The position numbers and the translations under genes are program-made. Positions 5,514 through 13,331 of a DNA stretch of 13,519 nt are shown here, piece by piece (within the stretch, counting starts at the first letter, position 1; every line of letters begins with the position of its first letter). Source of the DNA: Candidatus Omnitrophota bacterium (GTDB lineage Bacteria > Ratteibacteria > UBA8468 > MWAK01); assembly GCA_043797665.1 (NCBI GenBank), contig JAZDPL010000008.1:1-13519 (forward strand), given 5' to 3'. The notes under the pieces were generated by a model that had not been told where the DNA came from, made no database searches, and saw nothing but the letters and a program-made list of their open reading frames with translations.

Positions 5514-5765
5514 TTATTTATAAACTTCTCCGCGATGCCCAATCGCGCGAACCCAGATTGTTTTACTGCCAAAATCTGGCGTGTAAATAATACGTAAAGG
5601 TGGTATTTTAATACGATACGAACCCTGAAATTCCCCTTCCATTTTTTCACCTAAAAATGGGTTGGTTGCCAAAAGAATGAGCGATTTCGCCGCTTTCTTT
5701 TGAGATATTTTATCAGATTTTTTTAGAAATTTTTCGGCCTGGTTTGAGAGTTTTACGCGAAACAT
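5514..5765 (-). CDS. Type II TA toxin, RelE/ParE superfamily
   Basis: 83 aa, basic; MFRVKLSNQAEKFLKK..NPFLGEKMEG..SYRIKIPPLRIIY..RAIGHRGEVYK fits RelE. Start set at ATG 5765; directly downstream of the antitoxin. Confidence 0.9.
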   Translation of the reverse strand: MFRVKLSNQAEKFLKKSDKISQKKAAKSLILLATNPFLGEKMEGEFQGSYRIKIPPLRIIYTPDFGSKTIWVRAIGHRGEVYK

Positions 5766-6072
5766 ATTTTTTGTTTTTTTCCGCAACCAAGAGATTTTTT
5801 AAATTTAACTCTTCAATAATTTCATCTAAATCACAATACCGACCGGCCTTAATATCTTCATCCCCTTCTCGAATAGATTTCATCAACTCCGGATCGGAAA
5901 GAGTCTCCAATGTCGCTATCCAGCCGTCAAACTCCTCTTTGCTCATAATTACCGCCTCCGGAACCCCTTTTACGGTGATATTAATTGGAAAAGGGCTTCT
6001 TTTGACTTTTTCCAAAAGGCCGAAAAAGTTATTTCTTGCTTCCGTAGCATTAATATAGTTTTGTGAAGCCAT
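5713..6072 (-). CDS. Type II TA antitoxin, Phd/YefM family
   Basis: INATEARNNFFGLLEKV..PINITVKGVPEAVIMSKEEF..ATLETLSDPELMKSIREG is a typical Phd/YefM profile; AGGAGG RBS at 6082-6077; overlaps the toxin by 53 nt. Confidence 0.93.
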   Translation of the reverse strand: MASQNYINATEARNNFFGLLEKVKRSPFPINITVKGVPEAVIMSKEEFDGWIATLETLSDPELMKSIREGDEDIKAGRYCDLDEIIEELNLKNLLVAEKNKKYVSRKTLKPGRKISKKI

Positions 6073-6439: not shown

Positions 6440-6469
6440 TTGACAGATAAAAGGCCGTTGTGTTAAATT
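6440..6469 (+). promoter_or_regulatory. sigma70 promoter of the arsenic operon
   Basis: TTGACA (6440-6445), 18 bp, TAAATT (6464-6469) preceded by TGn. Confidence 0.65.
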
Positions 6470-6503: not shown

Positions 6504-6812
6504 ATGAGGCCTAAGAAAATCAGGTGGATTAAATGCGCTCCCGGAGAAAGGTGTTTCCGGCCGCGTTGTAAACCGCTTAAGGAACTACGGGGCGTATATC
6601 TGACGCTGGACGAATTTGAGGCGATAAGGCTGGCCGACCTGGAAGAGATAAAACAGGAAGAAGCGGCAAAGCGGATGAGAATCTCCCGGCCGACTTTTTC
6701 ACGCATTGTAAATTCAGCCCGCAAGAAAATAGCCGATGGCCTGGTTAATATCAAGGCGATACGAATTGAGGGGGGCTGCTGTAAGATTATACCGAAAAGG
6801 TATCGGGTATGA
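6504..6812 (+). CDS. DUF134 family HTH protein, Cys-rich variant; probable operon regulator
   Basis: MRPKKIRWI..FRP..LTLDEFEAIRLADLEEIKQEEAAKRMRISRPTFSRIVNSARKKIADGLVNIKAIRIEGG matches DUF134. Cys at positions 11, 17, 22, 92, 93. Confidence 0.9.
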   Translation: MRPKKIRWIKCAPGERCFRPRCKPLKELRGVYLTLDEFEAIRLADLEEIKQEEAAKRMRISRPTFSRIVNSARKKIADGLVNIKAIRIEGGCCKIIPKRYRV

Positions 6813-7762
6813 TAAGAATATTTAGTGATTGGGTTGTTTATAAAGTACTCTCAATTTCGCCTGATACACTTCTGGGGAATGCAGTAAACTTTTTTTTGTA
6901 TGATACGATAAAGATATTTTTGCTTTTGTTGGTGATTATATTTGTTATTTCATTTGTCAGGACTTTCTTTCCGCCGGAACGAACCAGGAATATCTTAAGC
7001 CATAAACAGAAATATACGGGGAATATCGTTGCCGCGTTACTTGGAATCGTAACACCTTTTTGTTCCTGCAGTGCCGTACCGTTATTTTTAGGGTTTGTCG
7101 AAGCTGGAATTCCCCTGGGAGTGACGTTTTCTTTTCTGGTTTCTTCTCCCATGATTAATGAAGTGGCTCTGGTAATGCTCTGGGGGATGTTTGGATGGAA
7201 GATAGCGCTTGTTTATATCGTAAGCGGATTTTTCATTGCTGTTGTGTCAGGAATTATTATCGGCACGCTGAAAGTTGAAAATCTTCTGGAAGATTTTCTC
7301 TCGAAGGAAAGAACGTGTTGTCCAAATAAGTTATTGGGACCATCCGTAGAGGAAAGATTAGGCTACGCCAAGAATTACACCGGTGATATCATAAAAAGAA
7401 TCTGGCTGTTTGTATTGTTTGGTATTGGTATAGGTGCGTGGATACACGGCTATGTTCCGAGTGATTTACTCGTCAGGTATGCCGGCAAGGATAATTGGTT
7501 TGCTGTACCTATTGCAACCTTGATAGGTATTCCTCTTTATTCAAATGCCGCCGGAGTAATACCCTTAGTAAGCGTTTTAACCGAGAAAGGTGTGGGCATG
7601 GGTACGGCCTTAGCGTTTATGATGGCTGTGACCGGGCTTTCCTTACCAGAGTTTTTACTACTTAAAAAAATCATGAAACCCAGGCTGATTTTGATTTTTG
7701 CCGGTGTTGTGGGTATCGGAATAATTTTTATAGGATACTTATTTAATCTTATTATACGTTAG
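6809..7762 (+). CDS. arsP: ArsP-family (DUF318) permease, probable methylarsenite efflux
   Basis: TPFCSCSAVPLFLG, GIPLGVTFSFLVSSPMINE, GIPLYSNAAG and ALAFMMAVTGLSLPE motifs; ATGA overlap with DUF134; ars context. Substrate is inferred. Confidence 0.88.
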   Translation: MIRIFSDWVVYKVLSISPDTLLGNAVNFFLYDTIKIFLLLLVIIFVISFVRTFFPPERTRNILSHKQKYTGNIVAALLGIVTPFCSCSAVPLFLGFVEAGIPLGVTFSFLVSSPMINEVALVMLWGMFGWKIALVYIVSGFFIAVVSGIIIGTLKVENLLEDFLSKERTCCPNKLLGPSVEERLGYAKNYTGDIIKRIWLFVLFGIGIGAWIHGYVPSDLLVRYAGKDNWFAVPIATLIGIPLYSNAAGVIPLVSVLTEKGVGMGTALAFMMAVTGLSLPEFLLLKKIMKPRLILIFAGVVGIGIIFIGYLFNLIIR

Positions 7763-7767
7763 ATATT

Positions 7768-8034
7768 ATGAAAATAGAGATTCTCGGGATGGGTTGTCCC
7801 AAATGCAAAGCACTGGCTGCCAATGTGGAAGAGGCAGTCAAAGAATTGGGTGTAGAAGCAGAAATCGTGAAGGTGACCGAAATCAGCCAGATTATGAATT
7901 ATGGGGTGATGATGACGCCGGCCCTGGTGGTTGACGGCGAGGTCAAAAGCGCCGGGAAAGTTCTGATTAAAGAAGAGGTCAAAAAGATATTGCAAAAAAC
8001 GGAGGTGACCAATGGCGGAGAAGGGAAAGGGTAA
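7768..8034 (+). CDS. Small redox-active disulfide protein (MTH895-type thioredoxin family)
   Basis: MKIEILGMGCPKC..YGVMMTPALVVDGEVKSAGKV; this family commonly follows arsP. Confidence 0.92.
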   Translation: MKIEILGMGCPKCKALAANVEEAVKELGVEAEIVKVTEISQIMNYGVMMTPALVVDGEVKSAGKVLIKEEVKKILQKTEVTNGGEGKG

Positions 8035-8476
8035 ATCGTCCAATCGGTTGGGTAGAAGACTTATATTTTTAATCGCCGGGATGGTCCTTGCGGTTATCGT
8101 GGCAACCATAACGGTGTCGGATTCAGACCGGAAATCAGAAAGTGCGGCACAGCCAAAATTACCCCGGCTGGTTGACCTGGGTGCCGGTAAATGCATACCC
8201 TGCAAAATGATGGCGCCAATTCTGGCGGAATTGAAAAATGAATATGCCGGCGCATTAGATGTGGAAGTCATTGATATCTATGAAGATCAGTCAGCCGCCC
8301 GAAAATATAAAATCAGGCTGATTCCGACCCAGATTTTCCTGGATAGAGAAGGCAAAGAAATTTACCGGCATGAGGGTTTTATGTCCAAGGAAGATATTCT
8401 GGAACAGTGGAAGAAATCAGGATTTGACCTGGTAAAAAATAAAAAATCGGAACAAAAAAACAGGGTTGAAAAATGA
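8012..8476 (+). CDS. Membrane-anchored thioredoxin
   Basis: Basic N-terminus plus one hydrophobic helix, then LVDLGAGKCIPCKMM (CxxC) and IPTQIFLD (cis-Pro loop); GGAGGTG RBS. Confidence 0.9.
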   Translation: MAEKGKGKSSNRLGRRLIFLIAGMVLAVIVATITVSDSDRKSESAAQPKLPRLVDLGAGKCIPCKMMAPILAELKNEYAGALDVEVIDIYEDQSAARKYKIRLIPTQIFLDREGKEIYRHEGFMSKEDILEQWKKSGFDLVKNKKSEQKNRVEK

Positions 8477-9174
8477 TACAAAATCTTTTTCTTGCTTTGA
8501 CACACGCGGTTGAAGGTACACCCGTCCTGGCGCTTTCCGCCTCTTTTGTCTGGGGTATCCTGAGCATTATCTTAAGCCCCTGCCATTTAGCCAGTATTCC
8601 TCTGATTGTGGGATTCATCGGCGAACAGGGGACTATTTCCACCGGAAGGGCATTCCGGTTAGCAACACTCTTTTCCATTGGGATTCTTATAACCATTGCT
8701 CTCATCGGAATTATCACTGCTCTTCTGGGAAGAATGGCCGGCGATATAGGACCCTGGGGTAATTACCTGGTAGCGGGTGTTTTCTTCCTTGTGGGGCTAC
8801 ACCTTCTGGAAATTATTACCCTGCCAATGATGCAAGGGGCAAATCAGCCTACCCTGAAAAGGAAAGGGTTACTGGCTTCTTTTATCCTGGGGCTGGTTTT
8901 TGGGATTGCTCTCGGACCCTGCACTTTTGCCTACATGGCTCCGATGCTGGCGGTAACTTTCCGGATCGCGGCAGACCGGTTTTTATACGGGGTAGTTCTG
9001 CTTTTAGCATACGGAATCGGCCATTGTTCCGTCATCATTTTTGCCGGTACGTTTACCGAAGCGGTGGAACATTACCTGCACTGGAACGAAAAGTCAAAAG
9101 GGATTTCCGTGTTGAAAAAAGTCTGCGGGATTCTGGTCATTCTGGGCGGCGCGTATATGCTCTGGATTGCTTAA
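8473..9174 (+). CDS. ccdA: CcdA/DsbD-type transmembrane electron transporter
   Basis: Two PC motifs (LSPCHL, LGPCTF), about six TM helices, LLAYGIG; ATGA overlap with the anchored thioredoxin. Confidence 0.88.
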   Translation: MIQNLFLALTHAVEGTPVLALSASFVWGILSIILSPCHLASIPLIVGFIGEQGTISTGRAFRLATLFSIGILITIALIGIITALLGRMAGDIGPWGNYLVAGVFFLVGLHLLEIITLPMMQGANQPTLKRKGLLASFILGLVFGIALGPCTFAYMAPMLAVTFRIAADRFLYGVVLLLAYGIGHCSVIIFAGTFTEAVEHYLHWNEKSKGISVLKKVCGILVILGGAYMLWIA

Positions 9175-9214
9175 AACACGGATAAAAGGGGGCTTTCCAT
9201 TAAAGTAAGAATAT

Positions 9215-9379
9215 ATGGATACGAAAAAGATTATCAGTCTTGACGAAAACGATTTGCTCAGAGTTGAGCAGATCATCCTTGATCGCGACAAAGAAGAAGC
9301 GTTTGCTTTTGTTAAAGAAGTGATTAAAAGACAGATTGACAGGGGAAATGCCTCGAAGATGCGAAGAGAAAATATCTGA
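9215..9379 (+). CDS. Small hypothetical protein, 54 aa (absent from the ORF track)
   Basis: ATG 9215 to TGA 9379: MDTKKIISLDENDLLRVEQIILDRDKEEAFAFVKEVIKRQIDRGNASKMRRENI. Fills the ccdA-arsM gap on the operon strand, amphipathic helical pattern; RBS weak. Confidence 0.7.
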   Translation: MDTKKIISLDENDLLRVEQIILDRDKEEAFAFVKEVIKRQIDRGNASKMRRENI

Positions 9380-9399
9380 TATTGAAGCAAGGGTTAGAA

Positions 9400-10257
9400 A
9401 TGGGAAGAAAAGCAGAAGAAATTAAGAAACTCGTAAGAGACGGTTACGCCAAAGTCGTAACACAAGGGACATCCTGTTGTTCCTCGAGTTCTTGCTGTAC
9501 AAGCGCAAACTTAGCCCAAGATATCAGTAAATCTGTTGGCTATAGCGATGAAGAAATGAGCGTGGTTCCTGAAGGTGCTAACTTAGGACTTGGCTGCGGC
9601 AATCCGGTGGCGATTGCATCCCTTAAAGAAGGTGAAGTCGTGTTGGACCTCGGCAGCGGCGGCGGGTTTGACGTATTTCTGGCTGCCCAAAAAGTCGGTC
9701 CCGCGGGTCGGGTCGTCGGGGTGGACATGACCCCGGAAATGGTCGGCAAGGCACGCCGCAATATACCGGCCTTCCGTAAACGAACGGGACTGGACAACGT
9801 GGAGTTCCGTCTCGGTGAAATAGAACATCTGCCCGTAGCCGACGCGAGCGTGGACATCGTCATTTCCAACTGCGTAATCAATCTTTCGCCGGACAAACCG
9901 CAGGTGTGGCGAGAAATCGTCCGGGTGCTGAAGCCCGGCGGGCGCGTGGCGGTTTCCGATCTGGCGCTTTTACGGCCTTTGCCGGAAGCAATCCGTGAAT
10001 CCGTTGCCGCGCTGGTCGGCTGCATTGCCGGTGCGGTTTTCGTGGACGACACGCGGAAAATGGCAACCGCCGCGGGGCTGGTAAACCTGGTTCTGACACC
10101 GAAGCCTGATTACGTGGAGAATATGGCCGACTGGAACGACCCGTCCTACCGGACAATCCGTAAGCATTTTCCCAAGGGACGGACAATGAGCGACTACATC
10201 GTAAGTTTGTACCTCGCGGCGCGAAGGCCGGGGGCCGGTGGAAAGGAGCTTAAATGA
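9400..10257 (+). CDS. arsM: Arsenite S-adenosylmethionine methyltransferase
   Basis: SCC..SCC N-terminus, LGLGCGNP, VLDLGSGGGFD (SAM motif), ISNCVINLSPDK, VLKPGGR, GCIAGA. Start set at ATG 9400 rather than TTG 9382. Confidence 0.95.
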   Translation: MGRKAEEIKKLVRDGYAKVVTQGTSCCSSSSCCTSANLAQDISKSVGYSDEEMSVVPEGANLGLGCGNPVAIASLKEGEVVLDLGSGGGFDVFLAAQKVGPAGRVVGVDMTPEMVGKARRNIPAFRKRTGLDNVEFRLGEIEHLPVADASVDIVISNCVINLSPDKPQVWREIVRVLKPGGRVAVSDLALLRPLPEAIRESVAALVGCIAGAVFVDDTRKMATAAGLVNLVLTPKPDYVENMADWNDPSYRTIRKHFPKGRTMSDYIVSLYLAARRPGAGGKELK

Positions 10258-10451
10258 ACGCATTGGTTGTAGTGGACGGCTATGCGGAAATCGGAGCAGG
10301 CAGCGACGGCGTTGTACTCGCCACCGGCCGTGAATGTCTGAAGGGATGCTGTGCGGGATGTGCGGTGCCCTGCGCCGTATTCAAAGCCATGCAGGTTGCG
10401 GCGGGCGTTGCACTGCCGAAGGACGTCACCATTCGGATTACCAAGGAGTGA
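10254..10451 (+). CDS. Small Cys-rich hypothetical protein, 65 aa
   Basis: AAGGAG RBS and ATGA overlap with the arsM stop; motif CLKGCCAGCAVPC. Confidence 0.7.
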   Translation: MNALVVVDGYAEIGAGSDGVVLATGRECLKGCCAGCAVPCAVFKAMQVAAGVALPKDVTIRITKE

Positions 10452-10571
10452 CGCGCGGCCATTGCCGTCGGGCGCATGGTTGAAAAGGGTTCGGTGTCCG
10501 CCATGCGAGATTTTGCAGAGAATATTTTGGATTCGTCGAGGCAGAATGCCTCGGCTAAGGAGGAATGACCG

Positions 10572-11375
10572 ATGAACTCACCGAATGAAGAACAGAAACA
10601 GAAGGACAACATGGAATCGCTGAAGCAACAGGCCTCGGTCTGTAGGCCTGAATGCGGCTGCCACGCCACCGGGGCGTCGGGTCGAATACGTTGGGTGCTG
10701 GGAGCAATCGTGCTGGTCGCCGCCGCGGCGATGGTGGCGCGGGCCCTGATAAAGAGTAACAGGGCATCAACCCAGCCGTCGGCGCCCGCTTTTGAGGCAC
10801 CCGCCGGGGTACAGATGCCTGCACCCGAAAGTGATTCAGCCGCACCTTCCGTGAAAATCGGGAGGACTTCAGAGGTAATGCCGGGGAAGAAAACCGGTTC
10901 CGCCACACCCTCCGTCCAAGTTCAGAAGCCCTCGGACTCGAAGGATAGGAAGGGGAATGCTTCCGCTGCACCACCAGTCACAAACACCAAGGAATCGGAA
11001 GCGGTTGTAGGGAAAAAAATCGGGGCGATTTCGGAGTTGAACACAGTAGCCGTCGATGTCGACGCCGTTTTCGTATTTTTGCCCGGCAAGAATACTGCCG
11101 GTAGCAGTCTTCCTACGGTCCAGATCAACGGCGCCATGCGGACGATTGAAGCGCAAGGACAGAAGATCGGTCTTTTCACGCTGAAGACGGACTCGCGCGA
11201 CTACGAGAACATTGCGGCACAAGTGTCTGTGCCCGCTGTTCTGGCGATGGTCAAAGGGCGCGGGATGAGCGCGGTTTCCGGCGATATTACGGAAACGAAA
11301 CTTGTACAGGGGTTCGTTGCGGCTTCGAGGGCCGGTGGCTGTGGGTCGGGTTGCGGACCATCCGGTTGCAATTAA
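10572..11375 (+). CDS. Single-pass membrane protein with Cys motifs at both termini and a possible thioredoxin-like domain
   Basis: AAGGAGG RBS (alternative start 10611). CRPECGC, RIRW plus hydrophobic helix, Pro/Ala/Ser/Lys linker, alpha/beta domain (DAVFVFLP..SVPAVLAMVKG), tail GGCGSGCGPSGCN. Confidence 0.8.
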   Translation: MNSPNEEQKQKDNMESLKQQASVCRPECGCHATGASGRIRWVLGAIVLVAAAAMVARALIKSNRASTQPSAPAFEAPAGVQMPAPESDSAAPSVKIGRTSEVMPGKKTGSATPSVQVQKPSDSKDRKGNASAAPPVTNTKESEAVVGKKIGAISELNTVAVDVDAVFVFLPGKNTAGSSLPTVQINGAMRTIEAQGQKIGLFTLKTDSRDYENIAAQVSVPAVLAMVKGRGMSAVSGDITETKLVQGFVAASRAGGCGSGCGPSGCN

Positions 11376-11387
11376 GGAGAAAACGAC

Positions 11388-12089
11388 GTGCTTAAGTCCA
11401 TAACAACCATACTTCAATCCGCCGGCACGGGAGCGGCGGCCTTGCCGTTGGCGTTCCTGTTGGGACTGGTGAGTGCGGTGGCGAGCGCTTGTTGCACCTT
11501 ACCGGCCATGGGCATGCTGGTGGCCTACTCGGGCACGCGACAGGACGTAACCCGGCGTTCAACACTTGCGTCAACGGTCTGGTTCCTGGTCGGAACCACA
11601 CTGTCGCTGATTATTCTCGGGTTTGTGGCCGGGTTTGTCGGCCAGACGGCGCAGGTGTTTCTTGGACGATATTGGAAGCTGTTCGCGGGGGCTGTAGCGG
11701 TACTCCTGGGGCTGGCAACGTTGAAACTGCTTCCCTTCAGGCTGCCGAACCGCACTCGGAAGGACGGCGAGCCTTCGGCTTCCGGAGGAAAGATAGGCGC
11801 CGCGCTGGGGGGACTGTTTCTTGGCGGCGGTGTAGCGGCCTGTTCCCTGCCGTGCAACCCGGGCATCTTTATCGTACTTGGCGCGGCGGTACTGCAAGGA
11901 CATATCCTGTGGGCTATGGCTTTGATGACTGCTTTTGCGATCGGTTTCAGCCTGCCGCTCAGCGCCATCCTGTTCGGTGTGTCTTTCGGCAAAGCGTCCA
12001 TCAAGGCACAGAAAGCGGACGCCGCGATCCGAACCATTGCCGGCATACTGCTTGTCGGAATAGGATTTTATTTCTTTGCGACGTTCTAA
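11388..12089 (+). CDS. Second CcdA-like membrane protein with atypical Cys motifs
   Basis: GTG start with AAGGAG RBS; about six TM helices. AFLLGLVSAVASACCTLP and ACSLPCNP sit at the CcdA Cys positions; AFAIGFSLP and AGILLVGIGFY are CcdA-like. Confidence 0.75.
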   Translation: MLKSITTILQSAGTGAAALPLAFLLGLVSAVASACCTLPAMGMLVAYSGTRQDVTRRSTLASTVWFLVGTTLSLIILGFVAGFVGQTAQVFLGRYWKLFAGAVAVLLGLATLKLLPFRLPNRTRKDGEPSASGGKIGAALGGLFLGGGVAACSLPCNPGIFIVLGAAVLQGHILWAMALMTAFAIGFSLPLSAILFGVSFGKASIKAQKADAAIRTIAGILLVGIGFYFFATF

Positions 12090-12155
12090 GCGAAAGGAAG
12101 AAATGACCGGTGGAATTATTAATTATTTAAGACAAAAGATTTGGGGGAGGTGGGA

Positions 12156-13331
12156 ATGGAACGTACGGCGAAAAAAGAAAGAGGGCTGTCCATATTTGAC
12201 AGGTATTTGACGGTTTTCGTATTTCTGTGTATCGGAATCGGCATCGTTTTGGGGAAGGCCGCGCCGGGTGCGGCAAAGTTCCTGGACGGTCTGGCAATCT
12301 ATGTGGGTGGAGCGCCGGTTGTTTCAATTCCGATTGCCGTCTGCTTGTTTTTTATGATGTATCCCATCATGGTAAAGATTGACTTTGCGGAAGTTTTGAA
12401 GGCTGGTAAAAGCATAAAACCGGTCGGACTGACTTTATTTGTCAACTGGGCAATTAAGCCGTTTACGATGTATGCCATCGCGCTCTTCTTTCTGGGATTT
12501 CTGTTCCGGAACCTGATTGGCGCCGAAGCCTTAGACTATGTAAAGATACCTTTCGGGCTGAATCTGCCGGTCGGAGCCACCCACGGCGCGGGTACCGTAG
12601 TACTGTACAACGGAGTAAAGATGTTAGCGGTGCCTTTGTGGCGGAGTTACCTGGCCGGCTGTATCCTTCTTGGTGTTGCGCCCTGCACCGCCATGGTACT
12701 GGTCTGGGGATACTTAGCGAAGGGAAACGACGGACACACCCTGGTGATGGTGGCAATCAATTCCCTGTCTATGCTTCTTTTGTATGGTCTGTTAGGAGGT
12801 TTTCTTCTCGGCGTGGGTCGGCTCCCGGTACCCTGGCAGGCTTTGGTTCTTTCCATCGGAATTTACGTGGCTTTGCCTCTGGTAGCGGGTTATTTCACCC
12901 GAAAAAGGCTGATAAAAGCAAAAGGTGAAGCCTGGTTTACGGAAAAGTTTCTCCACCGACTCACACCCGTTACGATTATTGCACTTTTAATAACCCTGAT
13001 TCTCTTGTTCTCTTTCAAAGGCGAGATAATTCTCTCAAACCCCTTGACGATTCTGTGGATTGCCATCCCCTTATTTATTCAGACCAACCTTATTTTCTGG
13101 TTGGGGTATTTCCTGGCTAAGGCGTTGAAACTGACCTACGCGGATGCCGCCCCTTCTGCCATGATTGGCGCCTCCAACCATTTTGAAGTGGCAATCGCCA
13201 CCGCCACGATGCTCTTCGGGCTTTCTTCCGGTGCGGCTTTAGCCACCGTGGTCGGAGTCCTGATTGAAGTTCCGGTGATGCTGATGCTGGTAAAAATCTG
13301 CCTGCGTACCCGGCACTGGTTCCCCGGATAG
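12156..13331 (+). CDS. acr3: Acr3 family arsenite efflux transporter
   Basis: [53 protein letters not shown] and [12 protein letters not shown] motifs; GGAGGTG RBS before ATG 12156. Confidence 0.96.

Follow-up and report, generated by a model that had tools for sequence, protein, structure and literature searches.

As(III) is bound by three thiols, ArsD acts as its cytoplasmic chaperone, and MerP, of the mercury relay discussed below, has the fold of an HMA domain. One system close to the gene pair that we describe here is ArsEFG (TIGR00412, NF040494 and NF040495), for which the primary paper is said to be that of Chen, Zhang and Rosen in 2019, and in which a CcdA-fold protein encoded in ars operons is preceded by an exported thioredoxin-like gene. 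The ArsG family is named an organoarsenical efflux permease by NCBIfam, and ArsG is listed among the organoarsenical efflux transporters in the accessible part of PMC9144182. A module comprising CcdA and thioredoxin together with redox-active disulfide protein 2 is described from ars operons (PMC2963123, accessible sections), and CcdA is placed in the LysE transporter superfamily with its PCxxP motif at the substrate pocket (PMC11965370, accessible sections). For mercury, a relay runs from MerP through MerT, with its vicinal pair C24/C25, to MerA (PMC5715351, in excerpt).

Here we describe two adjacent genes, which we call A and B, in a stretch of 13,519 nucleotides that was analysed as a whole (the window). 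A first-pass annotation of this DNA had proposed that the pair might be a MerP/MerT-like thiol relay for arsenic or a specialised reductant conduit. The pair is a variant of CcdA/ArsG-type membrane thiol systems, not a MerP/MerT homologue, and is a real, conserved and apparently undescribed ars module. We found no published description of it in a search that lay mostly among papers outside subscription; no description of the pair turned up among papers on hgcA neighbourhoods, with the proviso that their figures or supplements may show these genes unlabelled, and the available portions of PMC10190100 and PMC10896945 add nothing on it.

The arsenic operon of the window

Positions 6504-13331 of the window are an arsenic operon, with the following genes in order behind a promoter match:

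6440-6469, sigma-70-like promoter match ahead of the DUF134 gene
6504-6812, + strand, Cys-bearing DUF134 HTH protein at the operon head (Pfam scan)
6809-7762, + strand, ArsP_1-family permease (Pfam scan)
7768-8034, + strand, ArsE/MTH895-type small thioredoxin (Pfam and NCBIfam scans)
8012-8476, + strand, membrane-anchored CxxC thioredoxin (Pfam and NCBIfam scans)
8473-9174, + strand, canonical two-PC ccdA (Pfam and NCBIfam scans)
9215-9379, 54-aa ORF ahead of arsM, without a family match
9382-10257, + strand, arsM arsenite methyltransferase, the methylase adjoining the A-B pair (NF008823, 338 bits, cut-off 263)
10254-10451, + strand, remnant (65 aa) of a DUF6951-family gene whose homologues are about 110 aa
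10572-11375, + strand, gene A, single-pass membrane protein of 267 aa
11388-12089, + strand, gene B, CcdA/DsbD-TM-type membrane protein of 233 aa
12141-13331, + strand, acr3 arsenite efflux permease (TIGR00832, 374 bits, cut-off 283)

The segment 7768-9174 (+ strand) is a redox module separate from the A-B pair, and no arsR was identified among the scanned genes of the operon. The 54-aa ORF has no homologue in the 80 genome loci with A (the best 80 of 96) that are considered below. About 45 codons have been deleted from the interior of the DUF6951 remnant, where the gap lies between two short direct repeats; homologues that are intact, Cys-rich and 110 aa long are present in 11 of the same best 80 loci. 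At the left, low-GC edge of the island, a Phd/YefM antitoxin and a ParE-family toxin are encoded as a pair on the minus strand (5514-6072).

The GC content is 0.55-0.65 over about 9620-12000 as against 0.39-0.51 in the flanking operon genes, and gene A has no match in 64 other genomes of the window's phylum; on the strength of this contrast and this absence, the A-B pair would be a horizontally acquired block. Moreover, GC3 in arsM is 0.38-0.42 in the first 240 bp and 0.65-0.72 thereafter, and this step near 9620 suggests that the block entered by recombination within arsM. The arsM gene (9382-10257) itself looks chimeric. No plasmid match was found, and neither ArsD nor HgcA has a match in the window's genome (86% complete).

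Gene A carries a cysteine triad on either side of its membrane helix

The protein encoded by gene A contains exactly six Cys residues (C24, C28, C30, C257, C261 and C266), and its layout is the one that the first-pass annotation had read from it, namely a CxxxCxC motif, a single hydrophobic helix (residues ~41-57), a low-complexity linker, a CxxC-less domain (~145-254) and a Gly-rich C-terminus with three Cys. Homologues number 782 at 90% clustering and 538 at 50%. Gene A belongs to no Pfam or NCBIfam family, and the names 'MYXO-CTERM' and 'TauE/SafE' that homologues bear in the source are unsupported by family scans. In an alignment of 120 close homologues (query included), C24, C28 and C30 are conserved in 120, 119 and 120 sequences, respectively, and C257 and C261 in 118 and 117; at least three Cys lie within the last 16 residues in 112 of the 120, relative to which the linker of the window's A is ~40 residues longer than usual. 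A more divergent sample was drawn at 50% identity, comprising 151 sequences, of which 47 were missed by the anchor pattern and dropped and 104 were scored. In this set at least three Cys were found in 82 of the 85 N-termini scored and, with variable spacing, in 96 of the 102 tails scored, and CxxC occurred in none of the 104 domains.

The CxxC-less domain is predicted to have a thioredoxin fold. In the AlphaFold2 model, pLDDT is mostly above 90 for residues 146-254, and Foldseek, VIA-align and Atlas agree on this fold. The best VIA-align match is to 9nce (Z 10.3, rmsd 3.0, 100 residues), and the 50 VIA-align rows listed are thioredoxin/PDI-type or thioredoxin-containing constructs, a few being titled by complex only. 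The CxxC active site of a redox-active thioredoxin is absent from the domain, P221, at what we take to be the expected thioredoxin cis-Pro position, is invariant, and the domain surface is conserved. The profile of A does not match that of the window's thioredoxin. We also considered, and rejected, the assignment of A to ArsF (NF040494): none of 34 members matched, the hhalign probability was 0.3%, and CxxC is kept in six examples of ArsF, in contrast to A.

Long homologues bear on the orientation of A in the membrane. All 20 homologues of more than 305 aa among the 150 representatives listed were scanned for families, and 17 of them have an ArsD domain at the N-terminus, 16 above the Pfam cut-off and 12 with an intact CCxxGxC. 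Such ArsD::A fusions are also found in loci L057, L125 and L164, the last with the order arsA, arsD::A, B. A resembles ArsD (PF06953) in having a three-Cys site; it differs in giving no ArsD match, in being membrane-anchored and in having no Cys cluster in its folded domain. The charge flanking the helix (N side more positive in 72 of 120 homologues, equal in 37) hints at an N-in orientation. Stronger support for the N-in/C-out topology that had been expected for A comes from the ArsD::A fusions together with an A::B fusion described below, and we infer that the N-terminal triad is cytoplasmic and the C-terminal triad periplasmic.

Gene B is a CcdA-type protein with an altered first motif

The sequence of B scores 45.6 bits on Pfam DsbD_TM (gathering threshold 27.1) and 42 on DsbD_2 (24.9), which makes it a member of the CcdA/DsbD-TM superfamily, albeit one only ~21% identical to the window's canonical CcdA. 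No relative by sequence was found in the PDB. The model of B has a pLDDT of 56.6, and its top Foldseek match is to CcdA (5VKV; TM 0.50, E 4.8e-3); VIA-align gives this low-confidence model Z 7.6 and an rmsd of 4.8 for 195 residues, on a par with unrelated folds. Basic residues are grouped in alternate loops (51-57, 113-135 and 202-215), consistent with six helices and both ends outside.

B has four Cys residues (C35, C36, C152 and C156), and its motifs read CCTLP in TM1 and (C/S/A/V)SLPCNP in TM4. In an alignment of 98 homologues, all 98 keep C35, C36 and C156, and the mean column identity is 78%. In the internal repeat of B, C36 stands opposite C156 and C35 opposite P155, and this alignment indicates that the PCxxP of TM1 has turned into CCTLP with C35 at the Pro position; hhalign and MAFFT alignments of B to canonical CcdA differ by one residue at this motif. 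A canonical CcdA has two PCxxP motifs with one Cys each, a pattern from which B departs, the PCNP of TM4 being kept in most homologues. The proposal that CCTLP and CSLPC had replaced both single PC motifs is thus borne out for the first motif, which alone is altered, and not for the second, which is retained (P155-C156). C152, the extra Cys in CSLPC, is shared by 112 of 120 close homologues and by 30 of 73 genomic homologues; among the rest of the 73, two have CC at 155-156 and 41 have no fourth Cys. For this reason we dropped the notion of a conserved four-Cys site.

B shares with the CcdA/DsbD transmembrane domain (PDB 5VKV; PF02683, PF13386) its family, its predicted fold, Cys at what would be both discontinuous helices, an anchored partner with a predicted thioredoxin fold, and an ars context. 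It differs in the CCTLP of TM1 and in having three invariant Cys, its partner differs in lacking CxxC, in having three Cys on both membrane sides and in fusing to ArsD or to B, and the A-B pair has no dedicated cytoplasmic thioredoxin. B is not an ArsG, scoring 36.1 bits on NF040495 (cut-off 200) where a true ArsG in L081 scores 278.7, and ArsG, unlike B, has single Cys in SPCP and FCP. Nor are the two proteins homologues of MerP and MerT, to which the first-pass annotation had likened them. B gave no Pfam match to MerT, MerE or MerF at E<=0.1 and 12.3 bits on the MerTP fusion model (cut-off 180), and has a predicted six-helix CcdA fold unlike MerT; A differs from MerP in its predicted thioredoxin fold, in having triads, not pairs, and in its location in ars, not mer, operons.

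One sequence, P0393, is a complete in-frame fusion of A to B with all motifs present, which would place the tail of A on the same side of the membrane as the N-terminus of B. Two other candidates were not counted as fusions, P0224 because part of the domain of A and the tail are missing and P0394 because its B is joined to a sequence other than A.

A and B form one unit in ars operons

To examine the genomic setting of the pair we used 80 genome loci found with A (the best 80 of 96), mostly from metagenome-assembled genomes of Verrucomicrobiota, Kiritimatiellota, Lentisphaerota and Planctomycetota, and 80 metagenome loci found with B (the best 80 of 243). B was present in 78 of the best 80 A loci, with a gap between A and B of at most 37 bp in 65 of 73 full-length cases, and A lay directly upstream of B in all 62 of the best 80 B loci that had at least 400 bp of upstream DNA. 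An adjacent A was also found in all 19 B-positive genomes of a sample of 151, introduced below, in which two further genomes had A only. Co-presence, fixed order and one full fusion establish that A and B are one unit, in line with the co-occurrence anticipated for them. A core ars gene was found in 74 of the best 80 A loci (63 of 66 at >=8 kb); for the best 80 loci found with B the count was 57, and all 23 of those at >=8 kb had one. Homologues thus do not lie mainly outside metal(loid) loci, with the Cys motifs that had drawn attention to the pair conserved. By linkage to acr3, arsC, arsM, arsD and arsA, the pair is a component of ars operons.

These same loci served to build the neighbour models, each of which was named after a scan of a single representative; ArsD and CMD/AhpD had separate models, and hgcB was left out. 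By these models the best 80 of 96 A loci contain acr3 (62), arsC (56), arsM (39), CMD/AhpD-like genes (30), P1B ATPase genes (29), arsD (27), arsA (23) and hgcA (20); the arsM count upholds the linkage suggested in the first-pass annotation. At 140 A-B junctions, the gene directly preceding A is arsD in 8 and a CMD/AhpD-like CxxC gene in 40. These small CMD/AhpD-like proteins (L005:2850-3051, L019:9700-9898 and others) have Cys-rich tails and are sometimes fused to ArsD. The window and 33 of the best 80 A loci also encode a canonical CcdA-thioredoxin conduit, and a true ArsFG lies alongside the pair in three of the 80 (L019, L045 and L081).

Two ATPase genes stand close to the pair, at a distance of no more than 1.2 kb: arsA in 38 of 40 loci, and the gene for a CPC-type P1B ATPase in 43 of 46. 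They were never found together (0 of the best 80 A loci), and both are missing from 28 of the best 80 and from the window. The P1B ATPase that follows B is a candidate substitute for ArsA. It is encoded 3' of B at L008:7654-9552 and in 28 other A loci, sometimes after arsD, and has VACPCAFA in 41 of 43 sequences scored, with YN and FQEAGC in later helices. Proteins of 55-80 aa with CGPGCGCH or CCGSGGNCC (L048:6422-6589, L064:6048-6296 and L008:7469-7657) resemble the N-terminal motif of A; they are often encoded between B and the P1B ATPase, and the two that were scanned had no Pfam match. Gly-rich Cys tails of variable spacing also occur on AhpD-like, ArsM and FmdB-like proteins of these operons.

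Association of the pair with arsM and hgcA

The class of the genome that carries locus L028 (Kiritimatiellae) was sampled with 151 genomes, 19 of them B-positive. All 19 contain acr3. HgcA is encoded in 10 of the 19 and in 7 of the 132 others, and arsM is present in 10 of the 19 and in 21 of the 132 others. Either methylase is found in 17 of the 19 B-positive genomes as against 23 of 75 other acr3-positive genomes, a comparison for which a Fisher test overstates significance, kin being non-independent. Among genomes with both acr3 and a canonical ccdA the corresponding figures are 14 of 15 and 18 of 39. ArsD, used as a control, was found in 6 of 19 and 16 of 75 (not significant). Because canonical ccdA also tracks the methylases in this sample (18 of 39 versus 5 of 36), island complexity accounts for part of the signal. 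Methylase genes often occur in genomes of the sample without the pair (21 of 31 with arsM, 7 of 17 with hgcA), 10 of the 17 hgcA-positive genomes carrying it. A second class adds little on this link, as only 2 of its 201 genomes had B (one being the centre genome), against 113 with arsM and 6 with hgcA.

Within loci, the distance from the pair is at most 1.2 kb for arsM in 47 of 63 cases and for hgcA in 20 of 26, with NVWCAAGK in 25 of 28 hgcA matches. Both genes occur together in 2 of the best 80 of 96 A loci where 9.8 would be expected (2 of 44 versus 7.8 at >=12 kb), and neither occurs in 23 of the best 80 (8 of 44 at >=12 kb). They can also occupy the same slot: arsR-arsC-arsM-A-B (L010, L021, L035 and L086) is matched by arsR-arsC-hgcA-A-B (L015, L022 and L119), and A-B-P1B-arsC-acr3-arsM (L009 and L030) by the same order with hgcA (L042, L078 and L101). 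On a quick tree of B the arsM and hgcA labels interleave, with 13 changes, two of them forced by starred branches. An MtrA-like cobamide protein is encoded beside acr3 or A-B in ars operons at L002, L003:5803-6495 and L039:6833-7531; that of L039 is above the cut-off of NF002126, and the protein is a third methyl-transfer-related neighbour.

The linkage of hgcAB to ars genes is itself established, and mercury methylation may not be the native role of HgcAB, according to the available text of PMC7438021, PMC11984097 and bioRxiv 10.1101/2022.10.17.512643. The last of these, in the portion available, reports that methylarsenicals were not detected in cultures of ND132, which argues against HgcAB being a simple arsenic methylase.

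Discussion

The explanation that we favour, tentatively and at somewhat short of an even chance, is that A and B relay As(III) or methylarsenicals out of the cell by way of three thiol stations. In such a relay the cytoplasmic CxxxCxC of A would take As(III) or MAs(III) from ArsD or ArsM; C35, C36 and C156 of B, at the two discontinuous helices where CcdA has its redox pair, would bind the arsenical as a three-thiol site and give it alternate access across the membrane; and the redox-inactive thioredoxin domain of A, its proline at the cis-Pro position kept, would dock on the outer face of B and offer the tri-Cys tail to receive it. Movement outward is suggested by the resistance-operon context and by the NCBIfam name of the related ArsG family. 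Supporting an export relay are the triads, rather than pairs, at each station (the N-terminus of A, B and the tail of A), the ArsD::A fusions, the complete fusion P0393, the core ars context and the methylase link, as well as the membership of CcdA in the LysE transporter superfamily (PMC11965370, accessible sections). Some weight falls on the other side, since A is preceded by arsD far less often than by a redox-type CMD/AhpD-like CxxC partner, neither ArsD nor HgcA was matched in the window's genome and most methylase genomes lack the pair, the exporters Acr3 and ArsP are already present, and the model of B is poor, the three-Cys geometry being a prediction. The tail of A may, moreover, be a generic metal trap, given the similar tails on other operon proteins, and the ArsD fusions could arise from gene adjacency.

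Much of the same evidence bears on a specialised reductant conduit, which we regard as somewhat unlikely. B would then be a CcdA-type electron shuttle with C36 and C156 as its redox pair, fed by AhpD-like or small thioredoxin proteins, possibly via the N-terminal Cys of A, and the periplasmic tail of A would be kept reduced to trap exported As(III) or to reduce periplasmic arsenicals. B is indeed a CcdA by family and predicted fold with Cys at both PCxxP positions, the combination of an anchored thioredoxin fold with a CcdA repeats both the 8012/8473 pair of the window and the ArsF/ArsG pairs of L019, L045 and L081, the CMD/AhpD-like CxxC gene so often stands before A, and a periplasmic Cys tail would presumably need a source of reductant. 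However, CxxC is lost from the thioredoxin domain of A where a conduit would need it, the first PCxxP of B is CCTLP, and the invariant C35 and the ArsD fusions would be superfluous for electron transfer; in addition, many of these operons, that of the window included, already have a canonical conduit. The loss of CxxC, the triads at three stations and the ArsD fusions lead us to favour the export relay.

Quite unlikely, in our estimate, is an importer of the MerP/MerT kind, in which the tail of A would capture As(III) or Hg(II), B would pass it inward and the cytoplasmic triad would feed ArsM or HgcAB. Its stations are laid out as in the sequence MerP, MerT C24/C25, cytoplasmic pair and MerA (PMC5715351, in excerpt), to which the pair is similar in the vicinal C35-C36 of the first TM helix of B, in Cys stations predicted in periplasm, membrane and cytoplasm, and in a detoxifying cytoplasmic enzyme nearby. 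The closeness of arsM and hgcA to the pair and their near-exclusive occurrence would fit as well, but uptake beside Acr3/ArsA efflux would be a futile cycle, many A loci encode neither methylase, and Mer homology is lacking. That the pair assists an ATP-driven pump or serves another soft metal, passing metal(loid) to, or taking it from, ArsA/ArsD or the P1B-ATPase encoded after it, seems to us improbable: the proximity of the pair to arsA or the CPC-type ATPase, and the mutual exclusion of these two, speak for it, against which the window and over a third of the best 80 A loci contain neither pump, and B-positive genomes show no enrichment of the ArsD/ArsA branch. As for passive sequestration or hitch-hiking, with A a mere thiol sponge and the pair without a transport or redox role, proteins encoded in these islands commonly bear Cys-rich Gly/Ser tails, and the pair is patchy, mobile and absent from the other genomes of the window's phylum that were searched. 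The column identity and invariant intramembrane Cys of B, the strict A-B linkage with one fusion, and the conserved surface of the domain of A make this explanation very improbable indeed.

On a further reading, which we consider unlikely, the pair would serve metal(loid) methyltransferases specifically, as their thiol shuttle across the membrane, its CcdA fold switched from electrons to As(III)/MAs(III) and, where hgcAB holds the slot of arsM, to Hg(II) or methylmercury.

The pair defines an unnamed two-gene ars module with precise candidate residues. If B carries arsenicals, not electrons, it would show the change of a CcdA electron shuttle into a metalloid transporter, and would help to make sense of ArsG and of those CcdA genes in ars operons that lack an explanation. 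Through the association with both ArsM and HgcAB, two questions become testable, namely by what route methylators carry substrate and product over the membrane and why arsenic operons contain hgcAB. Were the methylase-shuttle reading true, the transport step in mercury methylation by methylators of the PVC group would gain a named candidate in the pair, and the exchange of arsM and hgcAB in one slot would point towards HgcAB having a native role related to arsenic.
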